Shown here one piece after another: positions 35,479 through 57,823 of a DNA stretch of 64,000 nucleotides. This DNA comes from a bacterium. Lineage in GTDB: Bacteria; Patescibacteriota; Minisyncoccia; JAHIHE01. The notes beneath the pieces were generated by a model. The model was not told where the DNA came from. It made no database searches and was given only the letters and a program-made list of their open reading frames with translations. The stretch spans positions 2,059 through 66,058 of the forward strand of contig JAUYBG010000010.1 of the NCBI GenBank assembly GCA_030693205.1. Reading direction: 5' to 3'. Within the stretch, counting starts at the first letter, position 1; each line of letters opens with the position of its first letter. A program made the position numbers and the translations under genes.

Positions 35479-35544
35479 TTGACAAGGTTATTGGATATGC
35501 TAGTATATATGGGACTTGACAAGATAATTTGATGTGGTAATATA
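35479..35544 (+). promoter_or_regulatory. Tandem sigma70-like promoters upstream of the 23S rRNA
   Basis: TTGACA-N16-TAGTAT (35479..35506) and TTGACA-N16-TAATAT (35516..35543). Confidence 0.55.
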
Positions 35545-36349
35545 AATAGGCATTTAGAGAGAAAAACCATCATTAAACTAATTATTAGGGACAGAGACGG
35601 AAACTTTTATTTTATAAATTATTTTATGGAATATTTAACGACAACCTACCAGGAAAGGAAGCGCAAAAGTTAAACGTCATTATTTTAGTTTTATTAATTG
35701 CCCGCTTCCAAGAGAAAGACGGGTTTTTTAGTTAAAAAAAATAAATTTGTGTGAAAATTGCAGTACATTAAAAATAATGTATCGCAATTTCTACACAACA
35801 GTTTGGGTAGAAAGTTCGCTTACAATTTATATTTATTATAGTCTTAAATCGTCAAGAGGATATTTATTTGCTCTGATCTGCCAATTTGGCGGAACAATGC
35901 GGGTAAGATATTCTAAAGTAAACAACCCCGAACCAATCTGCCAGCGAGCAGATGCTACGGGGTAAAAATCTTCAAAACTAGTAATCGCTGATTGCTAGTT
36001 AAAGTAAAAATGAAAAACTCATACTAAGAGTATATGGTGGATGCCTTGACATAAAAAGTCGATGAAGGACGTGGTGTAACTACGAAAAGCCTCGGTGAGC
36101 CGTTAACAGGCCGTGACCCGGGGGTATCCGAATGGGGAAACCCTTCTGAGTAAACCTCAGAAATTATTATCTGAATTAAGTAGGGTAATAAAGAGAACCT
36201 AGGGAAGTGAAACATCTCAGTACCTAGAGGAAAAGAAAAAAATGTTAATATTGATAACGGTGGCAGACATTATTTATTTAATGCCTACATCGGTATCGGT
36301 ATTATTTATTCCCTGAGTAGTGGCGAGCGAAATGGGAAAAGCCTAAACC

Positions 36350-36592
36350 TCTCGATGCGTGACATCGGAATTTTCAAGCACCAATTTTCAAGCACCAAAC
36401 AAAATTTAAATAACCAAAATTCAAAACTCCAAACAAATTGGAATTTAGAAAATTGGGATTTGGAATTTGATTGGGATTTGGAATTTGGGATTTGGAGCTT
36501 CCGCTGTTGCGCAGCGGGTGGTGTTGCAAGGTGGGTGCGTTATCGGAGTAATCCGGTACAGAGCTAACTAAATGTAATTTGATTAGTCAAAT
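36350..36592 (+). repeat. Roughly 220-nt expansion segment with tandem repeats inside the 23S 5' domain
   Basis: It lies between the conserved GAGCCTAAACC and TTCCTGGAAAGGACG. It contains ttttcaagcacca repeated twice and gggatttggaattt-like units repeated three times. Confidence 0.7.
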
Positions 36593-36762
36593 GTTCCTGG
36601 AAAGGACGACCAAAGAGGGTGATAGTCCCGTAGATGAAAATCATTACATGCTCTGAGTATCTATTCTTAAGTACCATAGGGCCAGAGAAACCCTATGGGA
36701 ATCCGGCAGTACTACTAACTTTGTCGCAAGACAAACTGCCAAGGCTAAATACTTTTTATGAT

Positions 36763-36799
<37 letters not shown>

Positions 36800-38252
36800 T
36801 AGCCCGTTTAGGGCAGTGAAATAGAAACTGAAATCATATACTTACAACGAGTGGGAGCCTTGCTTCGGCAGGGTGACCGCGTGCTTTTTGCAGAACGAAC
36901 CAACGAGTTTGCTAGGTATTGCAAGTCTAAGCTCTTCGGAGCGGAGGCGTAGTGAAAGCGAGGGTTAAATACCCGTTTAGCAATACTTACAAGACCCGAA
37001 ACCAGGTGAGCTAGCCATGAGCAGGATGAACCTCAACGAAAGTTGAGGGGAGGTCCGAACCCATTAGCCGTGCAATACTATGGGATGACTTGTGGTTAGG
37101 GATGAAATTTCAATCGAACTTGGTAATAGCTGGTTCTCTCCGAAATAGCTATAGGGCTAGCGTCCTTTGTTCCACTTTGGGGGTAGAGCACTGAATGGAC
37201 ACGGCTGGACTTTTGTCTACCTTGTCCAAACAAACTCCGAATACCAAAGTGCCAGAGAAGGGCAGTCAGAACGTGAGGGCTAAGCTTCACGCTCAAAAGG
37301 GGAACAGCCCAGATCGTCGTCTAAGGTCCCTAAATCTATGCTAAGTGATTTTAAGGAAGTGAGGTTTCTTAAACAGCTAGGAAGTTGGCTTAGAAGCAGC
37401 CATCTTTTAAAGAGTGCGTAACAGCTCACTAGTCTACTGAAATCTTGCGCCGAAAATGTCCGGGGCTAAGCATAGTACCGAAGACACGGGTTGTCATGTC
37501 CTCCGGGATGTGGCAGCGGTAGGAGAGCGTTCCATACGCAGTGAAGTCTGAGCGCGAGTAAAGATGGAGTGTATGGAAGTGAGAATGTTGGTATGAGTAA
37601 CATGAATTATGGTGAGAAACCATAACACCGAAAGCTTAAGGTTTCCTGGGCAACGAAAATCAACCCAGGGTTAGTCGGTCCTAAGGCGAGGTCGAAAGAC
37701 GTAGTCGATGGATAGCTGGTTAATATTCCAGCACTACTATATGTCATGATATGGAAGGACGCAATGTGGGAGGTTGGGCACATTATTGGATTTGTGTCAA
37801 TATCTTGTAGGCTGATTCGCGAGGCAAATCCCGTGGATCTTTGAAAGCAATTTCATAAAAGCCGAGAGATGTTGGAACTTCTGCCTAAGGGCGGGAGAAC
37901 CTAACTGGGGTCATGTTGCCAAGAAAATTTTCTAATTTATCATATAGTAACCGTACCGCAATCCGACACAGGTGAGCAGGCATCAGCGTGCCAAGGTGTA
38001 CGGGAGAACTCTTGTTAAGGAATTCGGCAAAACAACGGCCGTAACTTCGGGATAAGGCCTGCCTATCGCAAGATAGGCTGCAATAAAAGAAATCAGGGCG
38101 ACTGTTTAACAAAAACACAGGTCTATGCTAACCCGCAAGGGGATGTATATGGGCCGACGCTTGTCCAGTGTCAGAACGTTAAGGTTGGAAGTGAAAGCTT
38201 TCGGCTGAAGCGCTGATGAACGACAGCGGTAACTATAACCGTTCTAAGGTAG

Positions 38253-38630
38253 TGGATTTACTTAAGGAAGTGAATTCACTAGGATTGGAACGGCTATAGG
38301 GAGAACAGTCAAGGAAAAAAAGTAGCTGCCCATTTCTGTAAAAAGAAATGTCCATTTGGCCATATGCTGGAAACTCTGGTGAATCTGATGTTACTATGGT
38401 ATAATACGCACATAGACAATATGAGAAAATATTATGCCGAGTAAAAATACATTCAGTGCAGACAATCAGCAGGAAAGGCCAGAAATATTATAATATTTCT
38501 GGAATCCTCAGAGATCAAACGCCAAAACCATTGATAGAAAGATGGTAAGATATGACCCTATCTCTATGGCGACATAGAGGGATATCAACAAATATCCATT
38601 TCGTTTAATGACGGAATAAAAACAAATGAG
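38253..38630 (+). other. Roughly 378-nt insertion in 23S rRNA at the conserved GGUAG|CGAAAUUCC site. It is a candidate ORF-less group I intron or an intervening sequence.
   Basis: The conserved flanks are contiguous in typical 23S rRNAs. The insert is AT-rich with no long ORF. Confidence 0.6.
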
Positions 38631-39191
38631 CGAAATTCCTTGTCACTTAATTAGTGACGTGCATGAATAGCGGAACGACCCTGGTACTGTCTCAACAAGT
38701 GACCCGGTGAAATCGCATTAACAGTGAAGATGCTGTTTACCTGCAGCTAGACGAAAAGACCCTATGAAGCTTTACTATAACTTGGTATTGAGCCAAATTT
38801 TGAAATGCTTAGAATAGGTGGGAGACTTCGATCCTTAATCTCCGGATTAAGGGGAGTCGCAATATGAAATACCACTCTTTTTACAATTTTGTTCTAACCT
38901 CATACCGTAATCCGGTATAGGAACAGTGCCTGGCGGGTAGTTTGACTGGGGCGGTTGCCTCCTAAAAAGTAACGGAGGCGTTTAAAGGTCGGCTAGGCGC
39001 GGATGGAAATCGCGCTGATAGCGCAAAAGCATAAGCCGGCTTTACTGTGAGACTGACGGGTCGAACAGTTGCGAAAGCAGAATTTAGTGATCCGATGTGT
39101 CCATGTAGGTGGCACAAAGCTCAACGGATAAAAGCTACTCTAGGGATAACAGGCTAGTCCAGTCCAAGCGTCCATAGCGACGACTGGGTTC

Positions 39192-39227
<36 letters not shown>

Positions 39228-39775
39228 AAGAAGCTCCCAAGGGTTTGGCTGTTCGCCAACTAAAGCGGTACGTGAGCTGGGTTCAAACCGTCGTGAGACA
39301 GGTTGGACTCCTATCTACTGCAGGCGTAGATACTTGCGAGAACTCTTTTCTAGTACGAGAGGACCGAAAAGAACGAACCTCTGGTGCACCAATTGTCATG
39401 CCAATGGCATAGTTGGGTAGCTAAGTTCGGACGAGATAAACGCTGAAAGCATATAAGCGTGAAACTCATCTCAAGATTAGGTATCATAGATTCCAGAGAG
39501 ATGATCTGGTAAAATTCTGTCGCAAGACAGAACTGATAGGGTGCAGGTGTAAGTGTAGCAATACATTCAGCCGAGCACTACTAATGAATCATTGGAGTTT
39601 TTCATAACTTACTTTAACCGGCAATTAGCGGGTGTTATGAGAAGATAATGTTTATGATTGATTTGAATACTATATAAATATAAATTTAAGGGAATACGAA
39701 TTTTAGGTATTTACCCCGTTAAATAAAATTTTAATAAATTTTGGATTGTTTTTTTTACAATTCATTTAATAGGGG

Positions 39776-39804
39776 TTGACATTTTATAAAATTAGTGATA
39801 TTGT
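39776..39804 (+). promoter_or_regulatory. Promoter (TTGACA-N17-TATTGT) inside the 23S-5S spacer
   Basis: Consensus -35 and a reasonable -10 about 35 nt upstream of an ATG. Confidence 0.45.
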
Positions 39805-39839
39805 TATTCAGTAAATCATTAATATATAAAAATAAAATC

Positions 39840-40181
39840 ATGGATTCAGAAAAATTTGTTCCAGAAGAAGCAAAAGAGGAATATAGAACAATTAAAATTG
39901 GTGGAAAAGAAGTTAAAATTAAAAAACCAAAAAGACCAGAAGTTGTAGAAGCGGAAGAAAAAGAACAAGGTGAGCCTTCAGAAACAGAGGTTATACCGGA
40001 GCCAGGTTGGGAAAACTATGGAAAAGATACAGCGAAGCGATTGAGTGATGAAGTTTCAGATTCGGCAGGAGAGCGTCTTATTGATTTTGATAAGTTGGAT
40101 GATAACAAAGATAACGAAAAAACTCCTAAGACGGCAAAAGAAGCGATTGAATTATTAAAGAAAAGCAAAGAAGCAAAATAA
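39840..40181 (+). CDS. Small acidic/Lys-rich protein (113 aa) encoded between the 23S and 5S rRNA genes
   Basis: ORF with a low-complexity E/K-rich sequence and its own promoter. The ORF-track start at 39795 was trimmed to MDSEKF. Confidence 0.45.
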   Translation: MDSEKFVPEEAKEEYRTIKIGGKEVKIKKPKRPEVVEAEEKEQGEPSETEVIPEPGWENYGKDTAKRLSDEVSDSAGERLIDFDKLDDNKDNEKTPKTAKEAIELLKKSKEAK

Positions 40182-40303
40182 GATTTGTTTTAAAATTATT
40201 TCATTGAAAATTGATTGTAAATTGAAAATTGAGATTTGTCTGGCTATGCCAGATCCCGCGTAGCGGGAAAAATTAACAACCTCAGTCCTAAAGGACTGGA
40301 ATT

Positions 40304-40421
40304 TGCCCCGGTGCTATAATGGCGGTAATGTACCACCTCTTCCCATTCCGAACAGAGTCGTGAAAGTTACCAGCGCCGATGGTAGTTGGTTTACCAGCGA
40401 GAGTAGGCCAGTGCCGGGGCA
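40304..40421 (+). rRNA. rrf: 5S rRNA
   Basis: TGCCCCGGTG...CCATTCCGAAC...GCGCCGATGGTAG...GAGAGTAGG...CCGGGGCA. Confidence 0.9.
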
Positions 40422-40431
40422 TTATCACTAA

Positions 40432-40457
40432 ACCCCACCGAAAGGTGGGGTTTTTGC
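40432..40457 (+). terminator. Rho-independent terminator after the 5S rRNA
   Basis: CCCCACC gaaa GGTGGGG followed by ttttt. Confidence 0.7.
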
Positions 40458-40671: not shown

Positions 40672-41190
40672 TTGAGCTGTTCTTCTTCACACGCAAGAGA
40701 TGTGAAACAAAAGCTAGATCTGGATTTACCTTTTCCAATAGGCGCACATTGGCAATCATACAAAAAAGATCAAGCGAAAAAGGATGAAGATGTCAACAAT
40801 AGGATATTTGTCGTTTACTCTATAAGTACAGAACGATTATCCGATATTAAAGACTTGACTAGAAAGCGAGATGGTAAATATGGGCGAAAAGCGCATTTAA
40901 TAGTTGTTCTAAAAATAAACAAAATTGGTTTAGGAAATATTTTGCAAGCAATTATTTTTGTGAAATCAGTTATTTTAGTCAAAGACATTGAATGGGTTGA
41001 TGTTGGTGAAAAGATATTGAGATGTCTCGCTGATACTTTAAATAGCGCAGAAAAATCCGATTATGGCATTAAAAAATGGCATTTCAACAAGGATAATATA
41101 ATCCTTGTTGCCCCATCAAAACTTATTCAGCATAATATTACTGAAAAAATAAAAGAATGTATGCAAAAAATCGCGTCGAATGGTAAATAA
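40672..41190 (+). CDS. Hypothetical protein (172 aa), TTG start with a strong AAGGAGG SD
   Basis: ORF plus SD. No recognisable motif. Confidence 0.5.
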   Translation: MSCSSSHARDVKQKLDLDLPFPIGAHWQSYKKDQAKKDEDVNNRIFVVYSISTERLSDIKDLTRKRDGKYGRKAHLIVVLKINKIGLGNILQAIIFVKSVILVKDIEWVDVGEKILRCLADTLNSAEKSDYGIKKWHFNKDNIILVAPSKLIQHNITEKIKECMQKIASNGK

Positions 41191-41361
41191 TATTTAGAAG
41201 GGAAAAATCCCTTTTTTTTTGCTCAAGAAGAAAGAAATCGCCCCATTTTTTTATAGATCAATATTTCAGCGTTTTTCTTTGACAAATTTTTATATATCGA
41301 GTAATATAAAATCAATGGAGGAATGAACCCTTCAATTTTTTAAAAAAAGAGGTGAAAGAAA

Positions 41362-41997
41362 TTGAGGAAGGACGAAAATTTTGTGGACTACGGAAAGTAT
41401 CTTAAGTGCAGTATACCCAGATTTTGGAGAATACTTCAGGAGGAAAGAGTTAAGGGAACGATAAAGACTTGGCATCATGTATTTACCGGAAAATTAAAAA
41501 AAGGGGCATGGACGAAAAGAAACTGGAGTAAAAATCGGCTTGAGGAAGAGTTTAAAGATCACGGACTGGATATGGATGAGGGCGCGTATTTAGCCGCTTC
41601 AATACACTGTGTTCTTAATCAATTGCTTCGTAATAGTTCTCCGCCGGCAATTTTTGCAAACTTAAATTGTATTTTTGACAGTACATTTATTGATCGGAGT
41701 ACGAAGGAATATTTTACGAAACTTGTATTGTATGTTGTGGAAGAGAAATTAGAACGGCGGATTCTGAATAGAGAATACCTCAGTCTGGAAAAAATAAATG
41801 AATTTGTTGAAAGCGTAAGCCGAAAATCTCTTGTGATCCATATGGATGTTAACGATGGTAACAAAAGAAATACTGAATATATAATGTCTTTATTCAACGT
41901 AACAAGAGAAGATATTGTCCATTTTCTTAATAGGAACTTTCTTCCAAAAGACTGGCCAAAATACCCCGAAGAATTATGGGACTTATATTTGCGATAA
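41362..41997 (+). CDS. Hypothetical protein (211 aa)
   Basis: ORF with no known motif. Confidence 0.5.
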   Translation: MRKDENFVDYGKYLKCSIPRFWRILQEERVKGTIKTWHHVFTGKLKKGAWTKRNWSKNRLEEEFKDHGLDMDEGAYLAASIHCVLNQLLRNSSPPAIFANLNCIFDSTFIDRSTKEYFTKLVLYVVEEKLERRILNREYLSLEKINEFVESVSRKSLVIHMDVNDGNKRNTEYIMSLFNVTREDIVHFLNRNFLPKDWPKYPEELWDLYLR

Positions 41998-42014
41998 GTC
42001 CTTTTTTTATTCAC

Positions 42015-42045
42015 CCCTTGACAAAATCCTATAGTGTGCTATACT
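42015..42045 (+). promoter_or_regulatory. Promoter TTGACA-N16-TATACT
   Basis: Consensus hexamers, followed by a roughly 370-nt untranslated region. Confidence 0.45.
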
Positions 42046-42421
42046 GGATAGTCATGAATTAACTATGCAAAAGGCGTACATTTCAACAGCAGTTGATCCG
42101 CCGCAGGGGCGGAAAAACTCATATAAGAGGAGAGACATTAATTTTGGCTTACCCTTCGATAAAACTCAGGGCAAGTTTAAAGCAAAATTAGGCTGTTAAC
42201 TAAAGGCGTACAGTCTGATATTCAGTAATTAATGAGTAAAATCGCTTTTAAGCGTATTAGGCATATATTATATTGATGGGCAGTTAAGAGATTTCCTCAA
42301 AATTGTAATTATTTATGAGATTGGGGTTATCTTTCAACTGCCTATTATTTTTTTCAAGTCTATATTTTTTGTAGATTTGGAAAAGCTTCTGAATCAAAGA
42401 TTCGGAGGTGGAAAATAAAAG

Positions 42422-42682
42422 GTGATCAAAATGGACATAATAGAATGGGTTCTTGGAGCCGGACCAAAATGGAATATGCTTTTTGGCATAATTGTGGCTC
42501 TGCTCGGAGCATATGTGGCGATAAATGCCACAACAAGCTCGGTGAATTTATTCACCAAGGGGATAGATCAAGTGATAGGGTTGGCTATCGTAGGGCTCGG
42601 TTGCGCATATGCCGTAATATGGCATTACGAACAGCGCGAACAGCGCCAAGCTGCCAGACCAATAACGTCAAGCAGCCGCTAA
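42422..42682 (+). CDS. Small two-TM membrane protein (86 aa)
   Basis: Two hydrophobic helices. Confidence 0.45.
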   Translation: MIKMDIIEWVLGAGPKWNMLFGIIVALLGAYVAINATTSSVNLFTKGIDQVIGLAIVGLGCAYAVIWHYEQREQRQAARPITSSSR

Positions 42683-42769
42683 TCCCGCCAATCATTGATC
42701 CATTTCTTCTTTTTTTCTAAACCGTAACAGCAGTTATGCAGAATCTTGCCGTAGAGCAGAGATAAAAAG

Positions 42770-43798
42770 TTGGGGTTTAGAAAAAGGAAGAAAAATATTT
42801 CGGATAAAAATTTTTTAATCATCAAAACCTTTAGAAAAAACAATTATTTAAAGGTTTTTTTGATGTTCGATAATTTTTTGCTTTATGGAAGTATATTTGC
42901 TATAATTCAAACAAAGATATTTTTTATCATTAACCTTTTATATATGACCTTTTTTGGCAGAATTTTTCGCAAATTATTGTTTGGAGGAGTTTTTTTGTTT
43001 TTTATCGCCGGATCTTCGTACTATATTTATCAGGTATATTTTCCTACTTTGCCAAGCTGTAGCGATAATATTCAAAACCAGGATGAGGCCGGTGTTGATT
43101 GCGGCGGAATATGCGAAAACGAATGCCCTCCGTCTCCTCCGCCAGCCGATACCAAACCGATCGATGTGGCTTGGACCAGAGTGATCAATAGCGATGTCGG
43201 CGCGTATGACTTAGTGGCGAAAATAATCAATCCCAATTTATATTGGGGTGTTGCCGAGTTTAAGTATGATTTTATCGCGCGAGACAGCAATGGTACTGTG
43301 GTAATTGAACGAAGCGGAACGTCGTATCTTCTTCCCAATGGTTACGATTATTTAATCATTCCTTCCGTAAAAACAGATAAAATTCCCGTAAATCCGGCGG
43401 AATTGAATATTATAAAAGAAGGCCAGAAATGGGCCAGTGTCAGTTCGGTCTATAATAATTTATCGCTGTCGCTTCCTTTCAGGGGAAAAACATATACCGC
43501 CAAAGGCGAGAATGGTCTTCCTGTGGTTTCCGCAATTTTGACCAACGCCACCACTTTTGATTTTGATAAAATTGATATTAAGGTCGTTCTTTTTGACGAA
43601 AACAATGAACCGATGGGGGTGAATGTTTCGGATCGCCGAACAATGCGTTCCGGGGAAGAACAGAGTTTACGTTTATTTTGGAATACCGCGTTTCAAAAAG
43701 AAGTTTTTAATCAGGATTTTAAAGCCACGACAAACGTATTTGATTCGCAGAATTTCATGAGCCGTTTTGGCACCGGCGAAAAAATTCGCGAGTATTGA
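42770..43798 (+). CDS. Hypothetical membrane-anchored extracytoplasmic protein. The true start may be 42944 (MTFFGRIF).
   Basis: N-terminal TM then a roughly 280-aa domain. Located upstream of ftsW/rodA. Confidence 0.5.
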   Translation: MGFRKRKKNISDKNFLIIKTFRKNNYLKVFLMFDNFLLYGSIFAIIQTKIFFIINLLYMTFFGRIFRKLLFGGVFLFFIAGSSYYIYQVYFPTLPSCSDNIQNQDEAGVDCGGICENECPPSPPPADTKPIDVAWTRVINSDVGAYDLVAKIINPNLYWGVAEFKYDFIARDSNGTVVIERSGTSYLLPNGYDYLIIPSVKTDKIPVNPAELNIIKEGQKWASVSSVYNNLSLSLPFRGKTYTAKGENGLPVVSAILTNATTFDFDKIDIKVVLFDENNEPMGVNVSDRRTMRSGEEQSLRLFWNTAFQKEVFNQDFKATTNVFDSQNFMSRFGTGEKIREY

Positions 43799-43810: not shown

Positions 43811-44950
43811 TTGAAAAATTTATTTAATATGAACATAGGATCTATAAAAAACATAGACTGGTTTTTGTGCGCTCTGGTGATTATATTGGTTGTTTTCGGG
43901 CTGGCGGCTATTTATTCTACCTCTTTTGACAGCGCGAAAATCGTAAATTTCGAAAAGCAGGCAATTTTTTCCGTTATCGGCTTTATTTTAATGGCGGCAA
44001 TTATTTTAACGGTGGATTACCGGATGCTGAGGATCTATAGCGGAATTCTGTATTTGGGAGCGGTGTTATTCTTAATTTTAATAATCGCGACCGCTTCCAG
44101 TATCAGGGGAGTTTATAGCTGGTTTGATTTTGGAAGTTTTAGCCTTCAGCCGACGGAATTCATTAAAATAATTTTAGTGGTAAGTCTGGCTAAATATTTT
44201 TCAACCAGGGATATCGGCGATTTCAAACACGTGATCATTTCCAGCATTTACGCCGGGATTTTTATAATACTTATTGTCTTGCAGCCTGACGTAGGAATGG
44301 CGGCGATTTTTGTGATCATATGGGTTTCAATGAGTGTGGCTGCCGGATTAAAATTCAGGCATTTTGTTATTTTGGCACTGGCATTGATAATTTCGGGAGC
44401 TTTTTCCTGGGGTTACGTTTTTAAGGATTATCAAAAAGACCGCATCTTTATTTTTATAGATCCTTACAAAGATCCCCAGAAGAGAGGATACAATATTATC
44501 CAGTCAAAGATCGCGATCGGATCCGGAGGCTTATTGGGAAAAGGATTCGGCCGCGGCACTCAGAGCCAGCTTAATTTTTTGCCGGAAAAATATTCTGATT
44601 TTATTTTTGCGGCCTTGGCCGAGGAATCCGGATTTTTGGGAGTGACAATGCTTTTTATAATTTTTGCTTTTATTTTCCGGCAAATATTTTCCGTGATCAA
44701 AAAGATCAACGACTCTTTCGGCAAGTTATTGATCTTCGGCAGCGGGGTGATGATCTTCAGCGGTTTTTTCATAAACATAGCTTCAAACCTCGGCCTTTTG
44801 CCCGTGACGGGGATTCCTTTGCCTTTCATAAGCTACGGAGGAAGCTCTCTAGTCGCCACTTTGATGACCATAGGGCTGATCCAGAGCGTGATTGTCAGAA
44901 ATGAAGAATCATACAAAATCAAAGACGATATAATTGACAGCTATCACTAA
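43811..44950 (+). CDS. ftsW: SEDS-family peptidoglycan glycosyltransferase (FtsW/RodA)
   Basis: 10 TM segments and GSGGLLGKGFGRGTQSQLNFLPEKYSDFIFAALAEESGFLG. Confidence 0.9.
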   Translation: MKNLFNMNIGSIKNIDWFLCALVIILVVFGLAAIYSTSFDSAKIVNFEKQAIFSVIGFILMAAIILTVDYRMLRIYSGILYLGAVLFLILIIATASSIRGVYSWFDFGSFSLQPTEFIKIILVVSLAKYFSTRDIGDFKHVIISSIYAGIFIILIVLQPDVGMAAIFVIIWVSMSVAAGLKFRHFVILALALIISGAFSWGYVFKDYQKDRIFIFIDPYKDPQKRGYNIIQSKIAIGSGGLLGKGFGRGTQSQLNFLPEKYSDFIFAALAEESGFLGVTMLFIIFAFIFRQIFSVIKKINDSFGKLLIFGSGVMIFSGFFINIASNLGLLPVTGIPLPFISYGGSSLVATLMTIGLIQSVIVRNEESYKIKDDIIDSYH

Positions 44951-45163
44951 AAGTGTTAACATATTAATTACAAGCCGTCTAAAGATTGATTAAAGGGTTT
45001 TTAAAGCGGCTTTTCGTGATTTTAGCTATTTAGGTCTATTTTACCCCAGTCGCCAATTACCCGATATTTAAGCGAGTTAATCGGAACAATCATTTTGAAA
45101 AATACGTTTGAATGTCTTGAATATTGAATTATGGCAACGGGGTAAACGTAATACAAAAATATT

Positions 45164-45493
45164 ATGGAAAGATTTTATCCTAATTTAGATTTAAAATTTT
45201 TCGCCAATTGTCCTCTTTGCAATAAGCAGTATAATCCCAAGGAAATAAGGATTATAGACAAAAAAGAAGGGCTAATCGTCCTATATTTTATTTGCTCGCA
45301 CTGTAAAAGCGCTGTTATATCTTCCATTAGCGCCGGAGCTTTGGGAATAATGGCGGTTAGCATGATCACGGATCTAAGCGCGGCGGAAGTCGACATGATC
45401 AAGAGCGAAGAGACAATATCGTCAGATGATATTCTGGCCATTTATAATTCTTTTAAAAATCGATCAGTCAAGCAAAATTCACAGAAATTATAA
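45164..45493 (+). CDS. Hypothetical zinc-ribbon protein (CxxC...CxxC) with a hydrophobic segment
   Basis: CPLCNK...CSHCKS. Confidence 0.45.
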   Translation: MERFYPNLDLKFFANCPLCNKQYNPKEIRIIDKKEGLIVLYFICSHCKSAVISSISAGALGIMAVSMITDLSAAEVDMIKSEETISSDDILAIYNSFKNRSVKQNSQKL

Positions 45494-56486: not shown

Positions 56487-56558
56487 TGCCGATGTAGCTC
56501 AGTGGTAGAGCAACTGTTTTGTAAACAGTAGGTCGTCGGTTCAAATCCGACCATCGGC
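56487..56558 (+). tRNA. tRNA-Thr (anticodon TGT)
   Basis: Cloverleaf folded by hand. GCCGATG acceptor, GCTC/GAGC D-stem, ACTGT/ACAGT anticodon stem with loop TTTGTAA, and GTCGG-TTCAAAT-CCGAC T-arm. No encoded CCA. Confidence 0.85.
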
Positions 56559-56560
56559 TC

Positions 56561-56643
56561 CGGGCGGATACCGAAGTAGTCAAACGGGGCAGACTGTAAA
56601 TCTGCTGACCTAGGTCTTCGATGGTGCAAATCCATCTCCGCCC
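56561..56643 (+). tRNA. tRNA-Tyr (anticodon GTA) with a long variable arm
   Basis: GGGCGGA acceptor, anticodon loop CTGTAAA, long variable arm, and GATGG-TGCAAAT-CCATC T-arm. Confidence 0.85.
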
Positions 56644-56676
56644 ACAGATAGATTTTGGTTATTGAAAGCATAGTAG

Positions 56677-56749
56677 TGCCGTTGTAGCTCAGTTGGCAGA
56701 GCAATTCCTTGGTAAGGAGTAGGTCTCGGGTTCGAGTCCCGACAACGGC
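56677..56749 (+). tRNA. tRNA-Thr (anticodon GGT)
   Basis: GCCGTTG acceptor, anticodon loop TTGGTAA, and TCGGG-TTCGAGT-CCCGA T-arm. Confidence 0.85.
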
Positions 56750-56937
56750 TCAAGAAAATACTGCCTTCCGGGGCAGTATTTAAAATTTATGGCAATCTTT
56801 AAAACGGACGAAAAGTCATTGATGAATTCGAAATAAGCTAAGATAAGGGAAAATATGGAATTTGCCGCGTAACCCTTGATAAAATATTTAGTTTGTGGTA
56901 AAGTTAAGATAATAATAGCTATTGAACAAAACTCTTA

Positions 56938-57543
56938 ATGGGCGGCGCCAAAGAGGGTTTTCTGTTTTGGCATAGAAAATTTAAAAAAGGAAAATGCACA
57001 CCGCGAATCGTTCCAAATAATTTAATGAAGAACTTTTTAATAAAAATTATCGCAGTTTCAATTATTGGATCTTTGGCGGGAGGGTCGCTGTTTTATCTTT
57101 GGAAAAATAAATACGCATTTTCCAAAGATCAGATCATAATCGAAGAAGACCTGAGCAATAAAATTGAAAAAAAAGATTCGCAAAAAATGGAAGACGACAA
57201 GAAAATTTCCGACGGAATAGCCGCGATAATCAATTATGTGGAAAAGAATATTAACAAGATTTCTCCTGAAAAGCCGGCCAGCGGATTAACTTGGCGTTCC
57301 GTGAAAATTTGGTTTATCGATGATAAGAATTTTTATGTGGATTACAATGATGAAGTACTGAATGCCAGAAGAGTCTTGATGTCCCAATCAGTTTCGGGAC
57401 CGGCGGCGGAGTATAAGGTTCTGGGATTTTTTATTCCGGGGGAAAATGGCTGGATATTGAAATCAGGCAAAGATATCGGAGGGGCGACATCTCTTAAATT
57501 ATACGAGAAGAACGAGACAAGCAGCGAATGGATAATTAAATAA
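56938..57543 (+). CDS. Hypothetical membrane-anchored protein. The likely start is 57025 (MKNFLIK).
   Basis: ORF with an N-terminal TM after the internal Met. Confidence 0.45.
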   Translation: MGGAKEGFLFWHRKFKKGKCTPRIVPNNLMKNFLIKIIAVSIIGSLAGGSLFYLWKNKYAFSKDQIIIEEDLSNKIEKKDSQKMEDDKKISDGIAAIINYVEKNINKISPEKPASGLTWRSVKIWFIDDKNFYVDYNDEVLNARRVLMSQSVSGPAAEYKVLGFFIPGENGWILKSGKDIGGATSLKLYEKNETSSEWIIK

Positions 57544-57559
57544 TTATTAAATAAAGATT

Positions 57560-57715
57560 ATGTCACAAGAAAGACTAACAAAGATGAAATGCACGGTTTG
57601 CAAAAAAATCGGATATTTTACTTTTAAAAGCAAAGAAGCGGCGAAAGAAAAATTAGAATTGAACAAGTTCTGCAAATTTTGCCGAAAACATACTCCGCAC
57701 AAAGAATCCAAGTAA
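57560..57715 (+). CDS. rpmG: 50S ribosomal protein L33 (51 aa, zinc ribbon). It is absent from the ORF track because it is shorter than 60 aa.
   Basis: Translation MSQERLTKMKCTVCKKIGYFTFKSKEAAKEKLELNKFCKFCRKHTPHKESK has the CxxC...CxxC motif and sits in the classic rpmG-tRNA-Trp-secE-nusG context. Confidence 0.8.
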   Translation: MSQERLTKMKCTVCKKIGYFTFKSKEAAKEKLELNKFCKFCRKHTPHKESK

Positions 57716-57752
57716 TTTCGTTTGGCGCTAAAAAGGTTTACGCAACCTTTTT

Positions 57753-57823
57753 AGGAGTGTAATTCAGTGGCAGAATGCCGGTCTCCAAAACCGGATACGG
57801 GGGTTCGATTCCCTCCACTCCTG
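57753..57823 (+). tRNA. tRNA-Trp (anticodon CCA)
   Basis: AGGAGTG acceptor, CCGGT-CTCCAAA-ACCGG anticodon arm, and GGGGG-TTCGATT-CCCTC T-arm. Confidence 0.85.

Follow-up and report, generated by a model that had tools for sequence, protein, structure and literature searches.

The 64-kb window analysed here, a stretch of 64,000 nucleotides from a Patescibacteria contig, contains a 23S rRNA gene at 36012–39605 (Rfam RF02541, 2380.9 bits, model positions 1–2925) and a 5S rRNA gene at 40307–40419 (Rfam RF00001, 65.9 bits), which are separated by a spacer of 701 nt. One long forward open reading frame (ORF) lies inside this spacer. It comprises 113 codons, begins 235 nt past the 23S 3' end with an ATG at 39840 and ends with a TAA at 40179–40181; the two rRNA genes, the ORF and the promoters and RNA elements described around them are all read on the + strand. 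In GenBank, the ORF is already annotated as a hypothetical protein (Q8N37_02055, an exact match) from the MAG of an uncultured 'bacterium', and it was independently assembled from SRR13727537. An earlier note on this DNA had described a 113-aa ORF between the 23S and 5S genes, preceded by a TTGACA-N17-TATTGT promoter; both features are where they were said to be, with position 39776 being the first base of the −35 element and not the start of the ORF.

No 16S rRNA gene was detected with Rfam in the 64-kb window, so the 16S gene is unlinked from the 23S–5S pair. The spacer between the two genes holds no tRNA genes and gave no Rfam match, be it to an intron or to any further RNA family. Four clustered tRNA genes are located at 56488–57823 of the window. 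The 23S gene itself has a length of 3594 nt, which exceeds the 2925-position model by about 670 nt, and it includes AT-rich stretches at approximately 36150–36500 and 38300–38850. There is no ORF of at least 80 aa within it, and no intron family in Rfam reaches the gathering score; the extra sequence looks like the ORF-less insertions or expansions that have been reported for CPR bacteria.

Related loci were identified in two ways. A scan with the nearby FtsW gene yielded L002, a syntenic Patescibacteria MAG contig with a 91% identical FtsW, and otherwise only non-syntenic or short contigs. An exhaustive search of 1.84 billion representatives added a 58-aa protein (P0003), which is encoded on four further syntenic contigs (L007–L010, the L007 type); a 4321-aa match in the same search was taken as a low-complexity match and set aside. 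The window, L002 and L007–L010 share a common gene order, in which the 23S gene is followed by the spacer, the 5S gene and an orphan of 172–194 aa, and onward by the genes leading to FtsW and L25. Downstream of the 5S gene, L002 and the L007 type are 99–99.7% identical and are therefore strains of one species, whereas the window is 83–86% identical to both in its coding flanks and thus represents a sister species. Searches by other routes remained within this circle: a single-sequence search of 5.8 billion protein clusters returned only the query itself, and a profile built from the three ORF variants recovered from these clusters only those three alleles. A scan of metagenome contigs with a 28-nt exact 5S pattern found nothing beyond an already known contig, and a scan of genome contigs with back-translated ORF peptide patterns found none, missing L002 by one residue. 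Looking up the L002 allele yielded no sequence that reaches further upstream. Among the contigs with homologues of the downstream 172-aa orphan, L012 starts inside the 5S gene, and L013–L015 carry the homologue away from rRNA genes. All comparisons of the reading frame accordingly rest on three alleles, two of them from one sister species; the NCBI pipeline annotates all three as genes, and the alleles recur in separate samples.

The first part of the spacer appears to belong to the 23S gene rather than to the ORF. The 5' leader strand (35814–36007) and the 3' trailer strand (39609–39695) of the 23S gene form a long helix, in which 35986–36007 pairs with 39609–39630. A cofold of leader and trailer contains 71 intermolecular pairs and extends to 39695, including a near-perfect AU-rich duplex of 35824–35842 with 39669–39686. 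All three haplotypes keep the paired trailer blocks (approximately 39609–39637 and 39669–39695), L007 as far as the edge of a deletion. The most plausible reading of this pairing is a processing helix of the 23S rRNA, and since the helix closes at about 39695, the sequence downstream of this point would lie outside the 23S precursor stem. In the same region, L002 (positions 1500–1545 of the contig) and also L007–L010 carry four direct CGCGGA repeats in the 23S trailer, spaced approximately 10–12 nt apart, which are absent from the window.

The promoter ahead of the ORF (39776–39804) is of the sigma-70 type. Its −35 element, TTGACA, matches the consensus in all six positions and is separated by 17 nt from an extended −10 element (TGaTATTGT), in which the TG is present and the hexamer TATTGT matches in four of six positions. 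A stricter pattern, TTGACA-N13-15-TGnTAnnnT, has five matches in the 64-kb window, all of them on the + strand, where shuffled sequences lead one to expect 0.03; this amounts to an approximately 170-fold enrichment. Two tandem promoters of the same class (35479–35506 and 35516–35543, TTGACA-N16-TGnTAnnAT) lie upstream of the 23S gene. As the class is enriched and two of its copies are found where rRNA promoters are expected, the spacer promoter belongs, by its sequence, to what is evidently the strong-promoter class of this organism. The region from the −10 element to the ATG (39805–39839) holds what is probably an AT-rich 5' UTR of approximately 27–30 nt.

In the relatives, this promoter region has two different fates. 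Between 39669 and 39805, a segment that includes the promoter, the window and L002 differ in only a handful of positions and a 3-nt indel, which is far closer than the 83–86% identity of their coding flanks; the −35 element, the spacing and the TG of L002 are unchanged, and its −10 hexamer reads TACTAT. The L007 type, by contrast, has a deletion of approximately 82 nt that removes the −35 element together with a small branched stem-loop abutting it, and keeps the extended −10 element and the leader. This stem-loop (39713–39775, MFE −16.6 kcal/mol, z = −1.94) is present in the window and L002, which differ in it by only three substitutions. These are one-sided and all of them keep the pairing, with two changes from G·U to G-C and one from U-A to U·G, and they constitute weak evidence in favor of the structure.

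Downstream of the ORF, a conserved block (GTTTTAAAATTATTTCATT, 40186–40205) is found just past the stop codon, and AT-rich repeats as well as three hairpins (40239–40253, 40255–40267 and 40283–40298) also lie between the stop and the 5S gene. Hairpins in this interval had been pointed out before; all three are present, but the first two are specific to the window and only the third is kept in the relatives. None of the three is followed by a T-run, and no other terminator-like site was found between the ORF and the 5S gene. The first such site is an intrinsic terminator after the 5S gene (40433–40455), which reads CCCCACC-GAAA-GGTGGGG-TTTTT and which L002 retains as a hairpin with a T-run despite altered stem bases. 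Given that the two are on the same strand and that no terminator precedes the 5S gene, the ORF and the 5S rRNA probably share one transcript.

Several lines of evidence suggest that the ORF is protein-coding. In dinucleotide shuffles of the spacer, the longest ORF on either strand reached at least 113 codons in 0.6% of cases (P = 0.006), and when the purine-rich ORF segment was shuffled, it stayed free of in-frame stops in 0.03–0.04% of the trials (P = 3e-4). The corresponding probabilities of a stop-free frame, given the composition, are 3e-4 for the window, 5e-3 for L002 and 8e-3 for L007, and in the window ORF the remaining forward frames contain 3 and 15 stops. Codon statistics point in the same direction. 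A second-order, 3-periodic Markov model of coding sequence was trained with 40 long window ORFs. Its in-frame scores are 0.154 nats per codon for the window ORF, 0.177 for L002 and 0.131 for L007, compared with 0.128 on average and a median of 0.142 for real genes (leave-one-out, 342-nt windows). The frame of the window ORF scores best of all six, the other five being negative; for the L002 and L007 alleles, it is the only positive one among the three forward frames that were scored. Competing frames could be set aside. Two minus-strand ORFs (39846–39968 and 40016–40168) were rejected because the coding score is negative in all three minus frames across the ORF region, and a GTG start at 39795 from a mechanical ORF list because it falls within the −10 region and is not conserved.

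Signals of selection and of translation initiation are less clear. The Nei-Gojobori dN/dS ratio is 0.30–0.47 in protein-guided alignments, which bias it downwards, and mismatches in nucleotide-level alignments are distributed over the three codon positions as 9/9/13 and 11/9/8, i.e. with no third-position excess; by these values, any purifying selection on the amino-acid sequence would be weak. A Shine-Dalgarno motif was not found upstream of the ORF. The same applies to approximately 25 of the 54 genes of the window, which have similar AT-rich leaders, so that its absence is uninformative here. In sum, we regard the ORF as probably protein-coding, a conclusion that is supported but unproven.

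The predicted product of 113 residues (12.9 kDa) contains 31 aspartates and glutamates and 24 lysines and arginines, in line with its earlier description as charge-rich, and has a net charge of −7, a pI of 4.9 and a GRAVY value of −1.35. All three variants are net acidic (net charges of −7, −5 and −2, pI 4.9–5.2) and hydrophilic (GRAVY −1.2 to −1.5), and charged residues account for 49% of the window product and for 49–54% across the variants, while they do not exceed 36% in the other long ORFs of the window. An AlphaFold model has a mean pLDDT of 59 and a pTM of 0.17. It features a possible β-hairpin (residues 15–28) and two helices (60–76 and 99–111), of which only the C-terminal one nears confidence, and by this model the product would be mostly disordered. 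Searches of Pfam, NCBIfam, PHROGs, PADLOC and PDB sequences with the product returned nothing meaningful. The earlier note had further likened the product to a ribosome-associated or nucleic-acid-binding tail. This comparison is not supported, given the low pI of all variants and the lack of a detectable homologue or domain.

The two short alleles differ from the window, and from each other, in what they retain. The L002 allele (61 aa) starts at the same ATG and agrees with the window in 14 of the residues encoded by its first 15 codons; thereafter the sequence diverges, and the C-terminal part, including the C-terminal helix, is missing. At the position of the window stop codon it has GAA, and the frame closes four codons later, at what is the next in-frame TAA of the window (40191–40193). 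The L007-type allele (58 aa) has a diverged N-terminus and is missing the middle of the protein, including the predicted β-hairpin. Over its last 17 residues (an M followed by TAKEAIELLKKSKEVK), it shows one difference from the window, and it ends at the same stop. Strains of a single species thus differ in the parts that they lack, so that each part of the protein, taken singly, is dispensable. The frame, by contrast, is kept throughout, in spite of 165–168 nt of difference in length. Measured from the ATG or a 5'-UTR motif to the TAA of the stop region, L002 and L007 are each 168 nt off the window, a multiple of three, and all three alleles are open from the ATG to the stop region. Conservation of the frame in relatives was the check that the earlier note had suggested, and neither a frameshift nor a premature stop was encountered.

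The spacer is a mosaic, in which the window shares the promoter and the N-terminus with L002 and the C-terminus with L007. The ends of the ORF are nearly identical, and this conservation includes synonymous sites; it could reflect a constraint on DNA or RNA, or recent recombination, instead of a constraint on the protein. The idea that the two conserved ends of the ORF (5' and 3') pair with each other was judged by eye and rejected, because each short allele is without one of the partners.

We favor the interpretation, with a probability of roughly 0.55, that the ORF is a real, clade-restricted and fast-evolving small orphan gene with a host promoter, carried on the 5S transcript. The description as a promoter-equipped, protein-coding ORF is upheld in part, as far as the open frame and the gene-like codons are concerned; it is tempered by the weak selection and by the loss of different parts in the short alleles. 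From the sequence, we infer a transcription start, co-transcription with the 5S rRNA, translation and a cellular role as follows. The gene would constitute a self-contained transcription unit nested in the 23S–5S operon, composed of the promoter, an AT-rich leader of approximately 30 nt, the ORF, a 125-nt hairpin linker, the 5S gene and the terminator. Transcription from the internal promoter would most likely generate a hybrid RNA, a messenger in its 5' part and a 5S precursor in its 3' part, and read-through transcripts from the 23S promoters may carry the ORF too. Translation would then yield a small, acidic and largely disordered polyampholyte protein. Selection would keep the reading frame and constrain the sequence only loosely, such that only the openness of the frame and the charged, disordered character of the product appear to be maintained, in a genus-restricted orphan that would evolve through in-frame deletions, with recombination between the conserved flanks of rRNA as a possible further route. 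As to its role, our best guess is an accessory protein that the cell can do without and whose expression is coupled to the synthesis of rRNA.

The main alternative, which is possible but less likely, is that the promoter matters as a secondary promoter for the 5S gene, and that the ORF is merely a frame without selection on it, situated in the 5S precursor's leader, which is rich in purines and unstructured; such a frame would be open in three close alleles owing to shared ancestry and composition. Such a scenario would account for the observation that the promoter block is far better conserved than the body of the ORF, whose middle diverges approximately like unconstrained sequence and without a third-position bias, and for the deletion of different ORF halves in two strains of one species. 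The retention of the frame does not contradict it strongly either: in substitution-only simulations of neutral drift, the chance that no stop is gained is 9–34% per lineage, so that the retained frame amounts to modest evidence only. The lack of a Shine-Dalgarno motif and a family of only three members also fit. On the other hand, this scenario has to explain why a stop-free stretch of improbable length is found in each of the three alleles, next to forward frames with 3–15 stops, why gene-like codon statistics are seen in all three and in that frame only, and why both large length differences are in frame, with the ATG and the stop region kept. Moreover, the L007 type has lost the −35 element and kept the ORF, which is the opposite of what would be expected if the promoter alone mattered.

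An improbable explanation is that the ORF segment, by analogy with the insertion sequences of CPR rRNA genes, is what is left of a mobile insertion in decay, or else a recombination cassette; it would have entered between the conserved 23S and 5S flanks and would have no function for the host. This explanation draws on the dynamics of the rRNA operon in this group, where the window 23S gene has its approximately 670 extra nt, L002 a LAGLIDADG_1 ORF and L007 a 130-nt expansion, as well as on the mosaic spacer, given that strains with 99.7% identical flanks hold unrelated-looking alleles. Degenerate ORFs with large deletions have also been described for CPR rRNA insertions (PMC11270868). Against this, the product resembles neither homing endonucleases nor the IVS protein nor any phage or defence family. 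More specifically, no homing endonuclease domain (LAGLIDADG, GIY-YIG) and no intron family was found, the protein of 23S rRNA intervening sequences (PF05635) gave no profile match, and the ORF lies beyond the 23S 3' end and not within a 23S IVS. Nor does the window contain terminal repeats or second copies of the ORF or its hairpins, and the promoter is of the host type, in the same class as those of the 23S gene.

A more specific variant of our preferred reading, in which the ORF is a translated leader of the 5S precursor, so that an acidic disordered protein is tied one-to-one to 5S rRNA and acts on the ribosome or on the assembly of the 5S RNP, seems quite doubtful to us. Examples would be an acidic factor that associates with the ribosome and is particular to this lineage, or, in a phylum whose ribosomes are reduced, a protein that chaperones or mimics basic ribosomal proteins. 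Finally, it is very unlikely that the region is a structured non-coding RNA, for instance an element for processing or assembly or a small RNA, and that the ORF in it is incidental: the whole spacer with the 5S gene does fold better than shuffled sequences (z = −4.2), and its trailer pairs with the 23S leader up to 39695, but the 5S, together with the hairpins and the trailer, accounts for this signal, whereas the ORF transcript alone folds no better than its shuffles (z = +0.68), has no Rfam match and is unconserved in its body at the nucleotide level, all of which argues against a structured RNA.

The small orphan gene that we favor can be compared to several known systems. In CPR/Patescibacteria, ORFs within rRNA genes are well documented; they reside in introns or insertion sequences, and almost all of them encode homing endonucleases (LAGLIDADG, GIY-YIG) or the IVS protein (23S_rRNA_IVP) (PMC11270868; PMC11809585). 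Like these, the spacer ORF is embedded in an rRNA transcription unit and shows presence, absence and truncation at the strain level; unlike these, it lies beyond the 23S processing helix, comes with neither an endonuclease or IVP domain nor an intron RNA, and has its own promoter. The rarity that the earlier note had claimed for protein genes in such places is thus a fair statement for the spacer position, but ORFs inside rRNA genes are well known in this phylum.

Passenger genes, among them tRNA genes, occur in the spacers of bacterial rRNA operons, and Brewer and colleagues reportedly described, in the ISME J in 2020, unlinked rRNA genes with ordinary genes between them. The present case resembles both in that a gene rides in an rRNA operon, here with an unlinked 16S gene. 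It differs from the known passengers in that a protein-coding orphan sits directly upstream of the 5S gene with no terminator in between, for which a single molecule of mRNA and 5S precursor is predicted. Dual-function bacterial RNAs, such as SgrS/SgrT and RNAIII/hld, combine a small protein with a non-coding function, and the predicted transcript would likewise join the mRNA of a small protein and a functional RNA. In this instance, however, the RNA part would be an rRNA released by processing and not a base-pairing regulator. Highly charged, intrinsically disordered small proteins are also found in bacteria in the form of hydrophilin- or LEA-like polyampholytes. The product has in common with them the high proportion of charged residues (49–54%), a low-confidence model with short helices and a rapid evolution by indels, but it has no sequence relationship to any described family.

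A literature search of incomplete coverage returned no description of a protein gene in a 23S–5S spacer that is co-transcribed with the 5S gene. If the ORF is translated, one RNA would be both an mRNA and an rRNA precursor, and it would provide a concrete case for the coexistence of translation and rRNA processing on one transcript in minimal genomes. The case also indicates that, in Patescibacteria, the spacer is, besides the rRNA genes, a hot spot for the gain, truncation and exchange of small orphans. With three alleles in one genus-level clade, fast evolution and no inferable function, its wider importance is limited unless it is abundantly expressed, and the spacer ORF is a curiosity rather than a major surprise.

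The 23S genes of the relatives have peculiarities of their own. The 23S gene of L002 includes a partial ORF (positions 6–293) that is truncated where the contig ends and that gives a LAGLIDADG_1 match above the curated threshold (E = 1.6e-5), and the insertion ends at a position that corresponds to approximately 38495 in the window. The window is without this ORF, and only the last 12 codons align. In L007, an AT-rich expansion of approximately 130 nt near the 3' end of the 23S gene (positions 400–545) is made of repeats resembling GAAATTGAAAATT; at this site, the window shows no more than a short hairpin, and similar repeats are found at 40200–40235, just downstream of the spacer ORF.

The remaining matches of the strong-promoter class lie further downstream. 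The fourth (42018–42045) is followed by approximately 300 nt without an ORF of at least 80 aa, a stretch that closes in a long hairpin with a T-run at approximately 42272–42356. Promoter and hairpin are conserved in L002 (82% and 92%, respectively), and the middle is not; an Rfam search of 42018–42360 gave no match. This segment may be a small RNA or the long leader of an 86-aa, membrane-like ORF that starts at 42422. The fifth match (44934–44962) overlaps the end of the FtsW/RodA ORF and is located approximately 200 nt upstream of a 109-aa ORF at 45164.

There is no Pfam domain in any of the genes directly after the 5S gene (40672–43798), which encode proteins of 172, 211, 86 and 342 aa. The 172-aa protein is 51% identical to its counterpart in L002, compared to 91% for FtsW next door, which indicates a fast-evolving stretch of orphans after the 5S gene. 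The 211-aa protein shows a weak match to a CARF profile in PADLOC (E = 0.0035).
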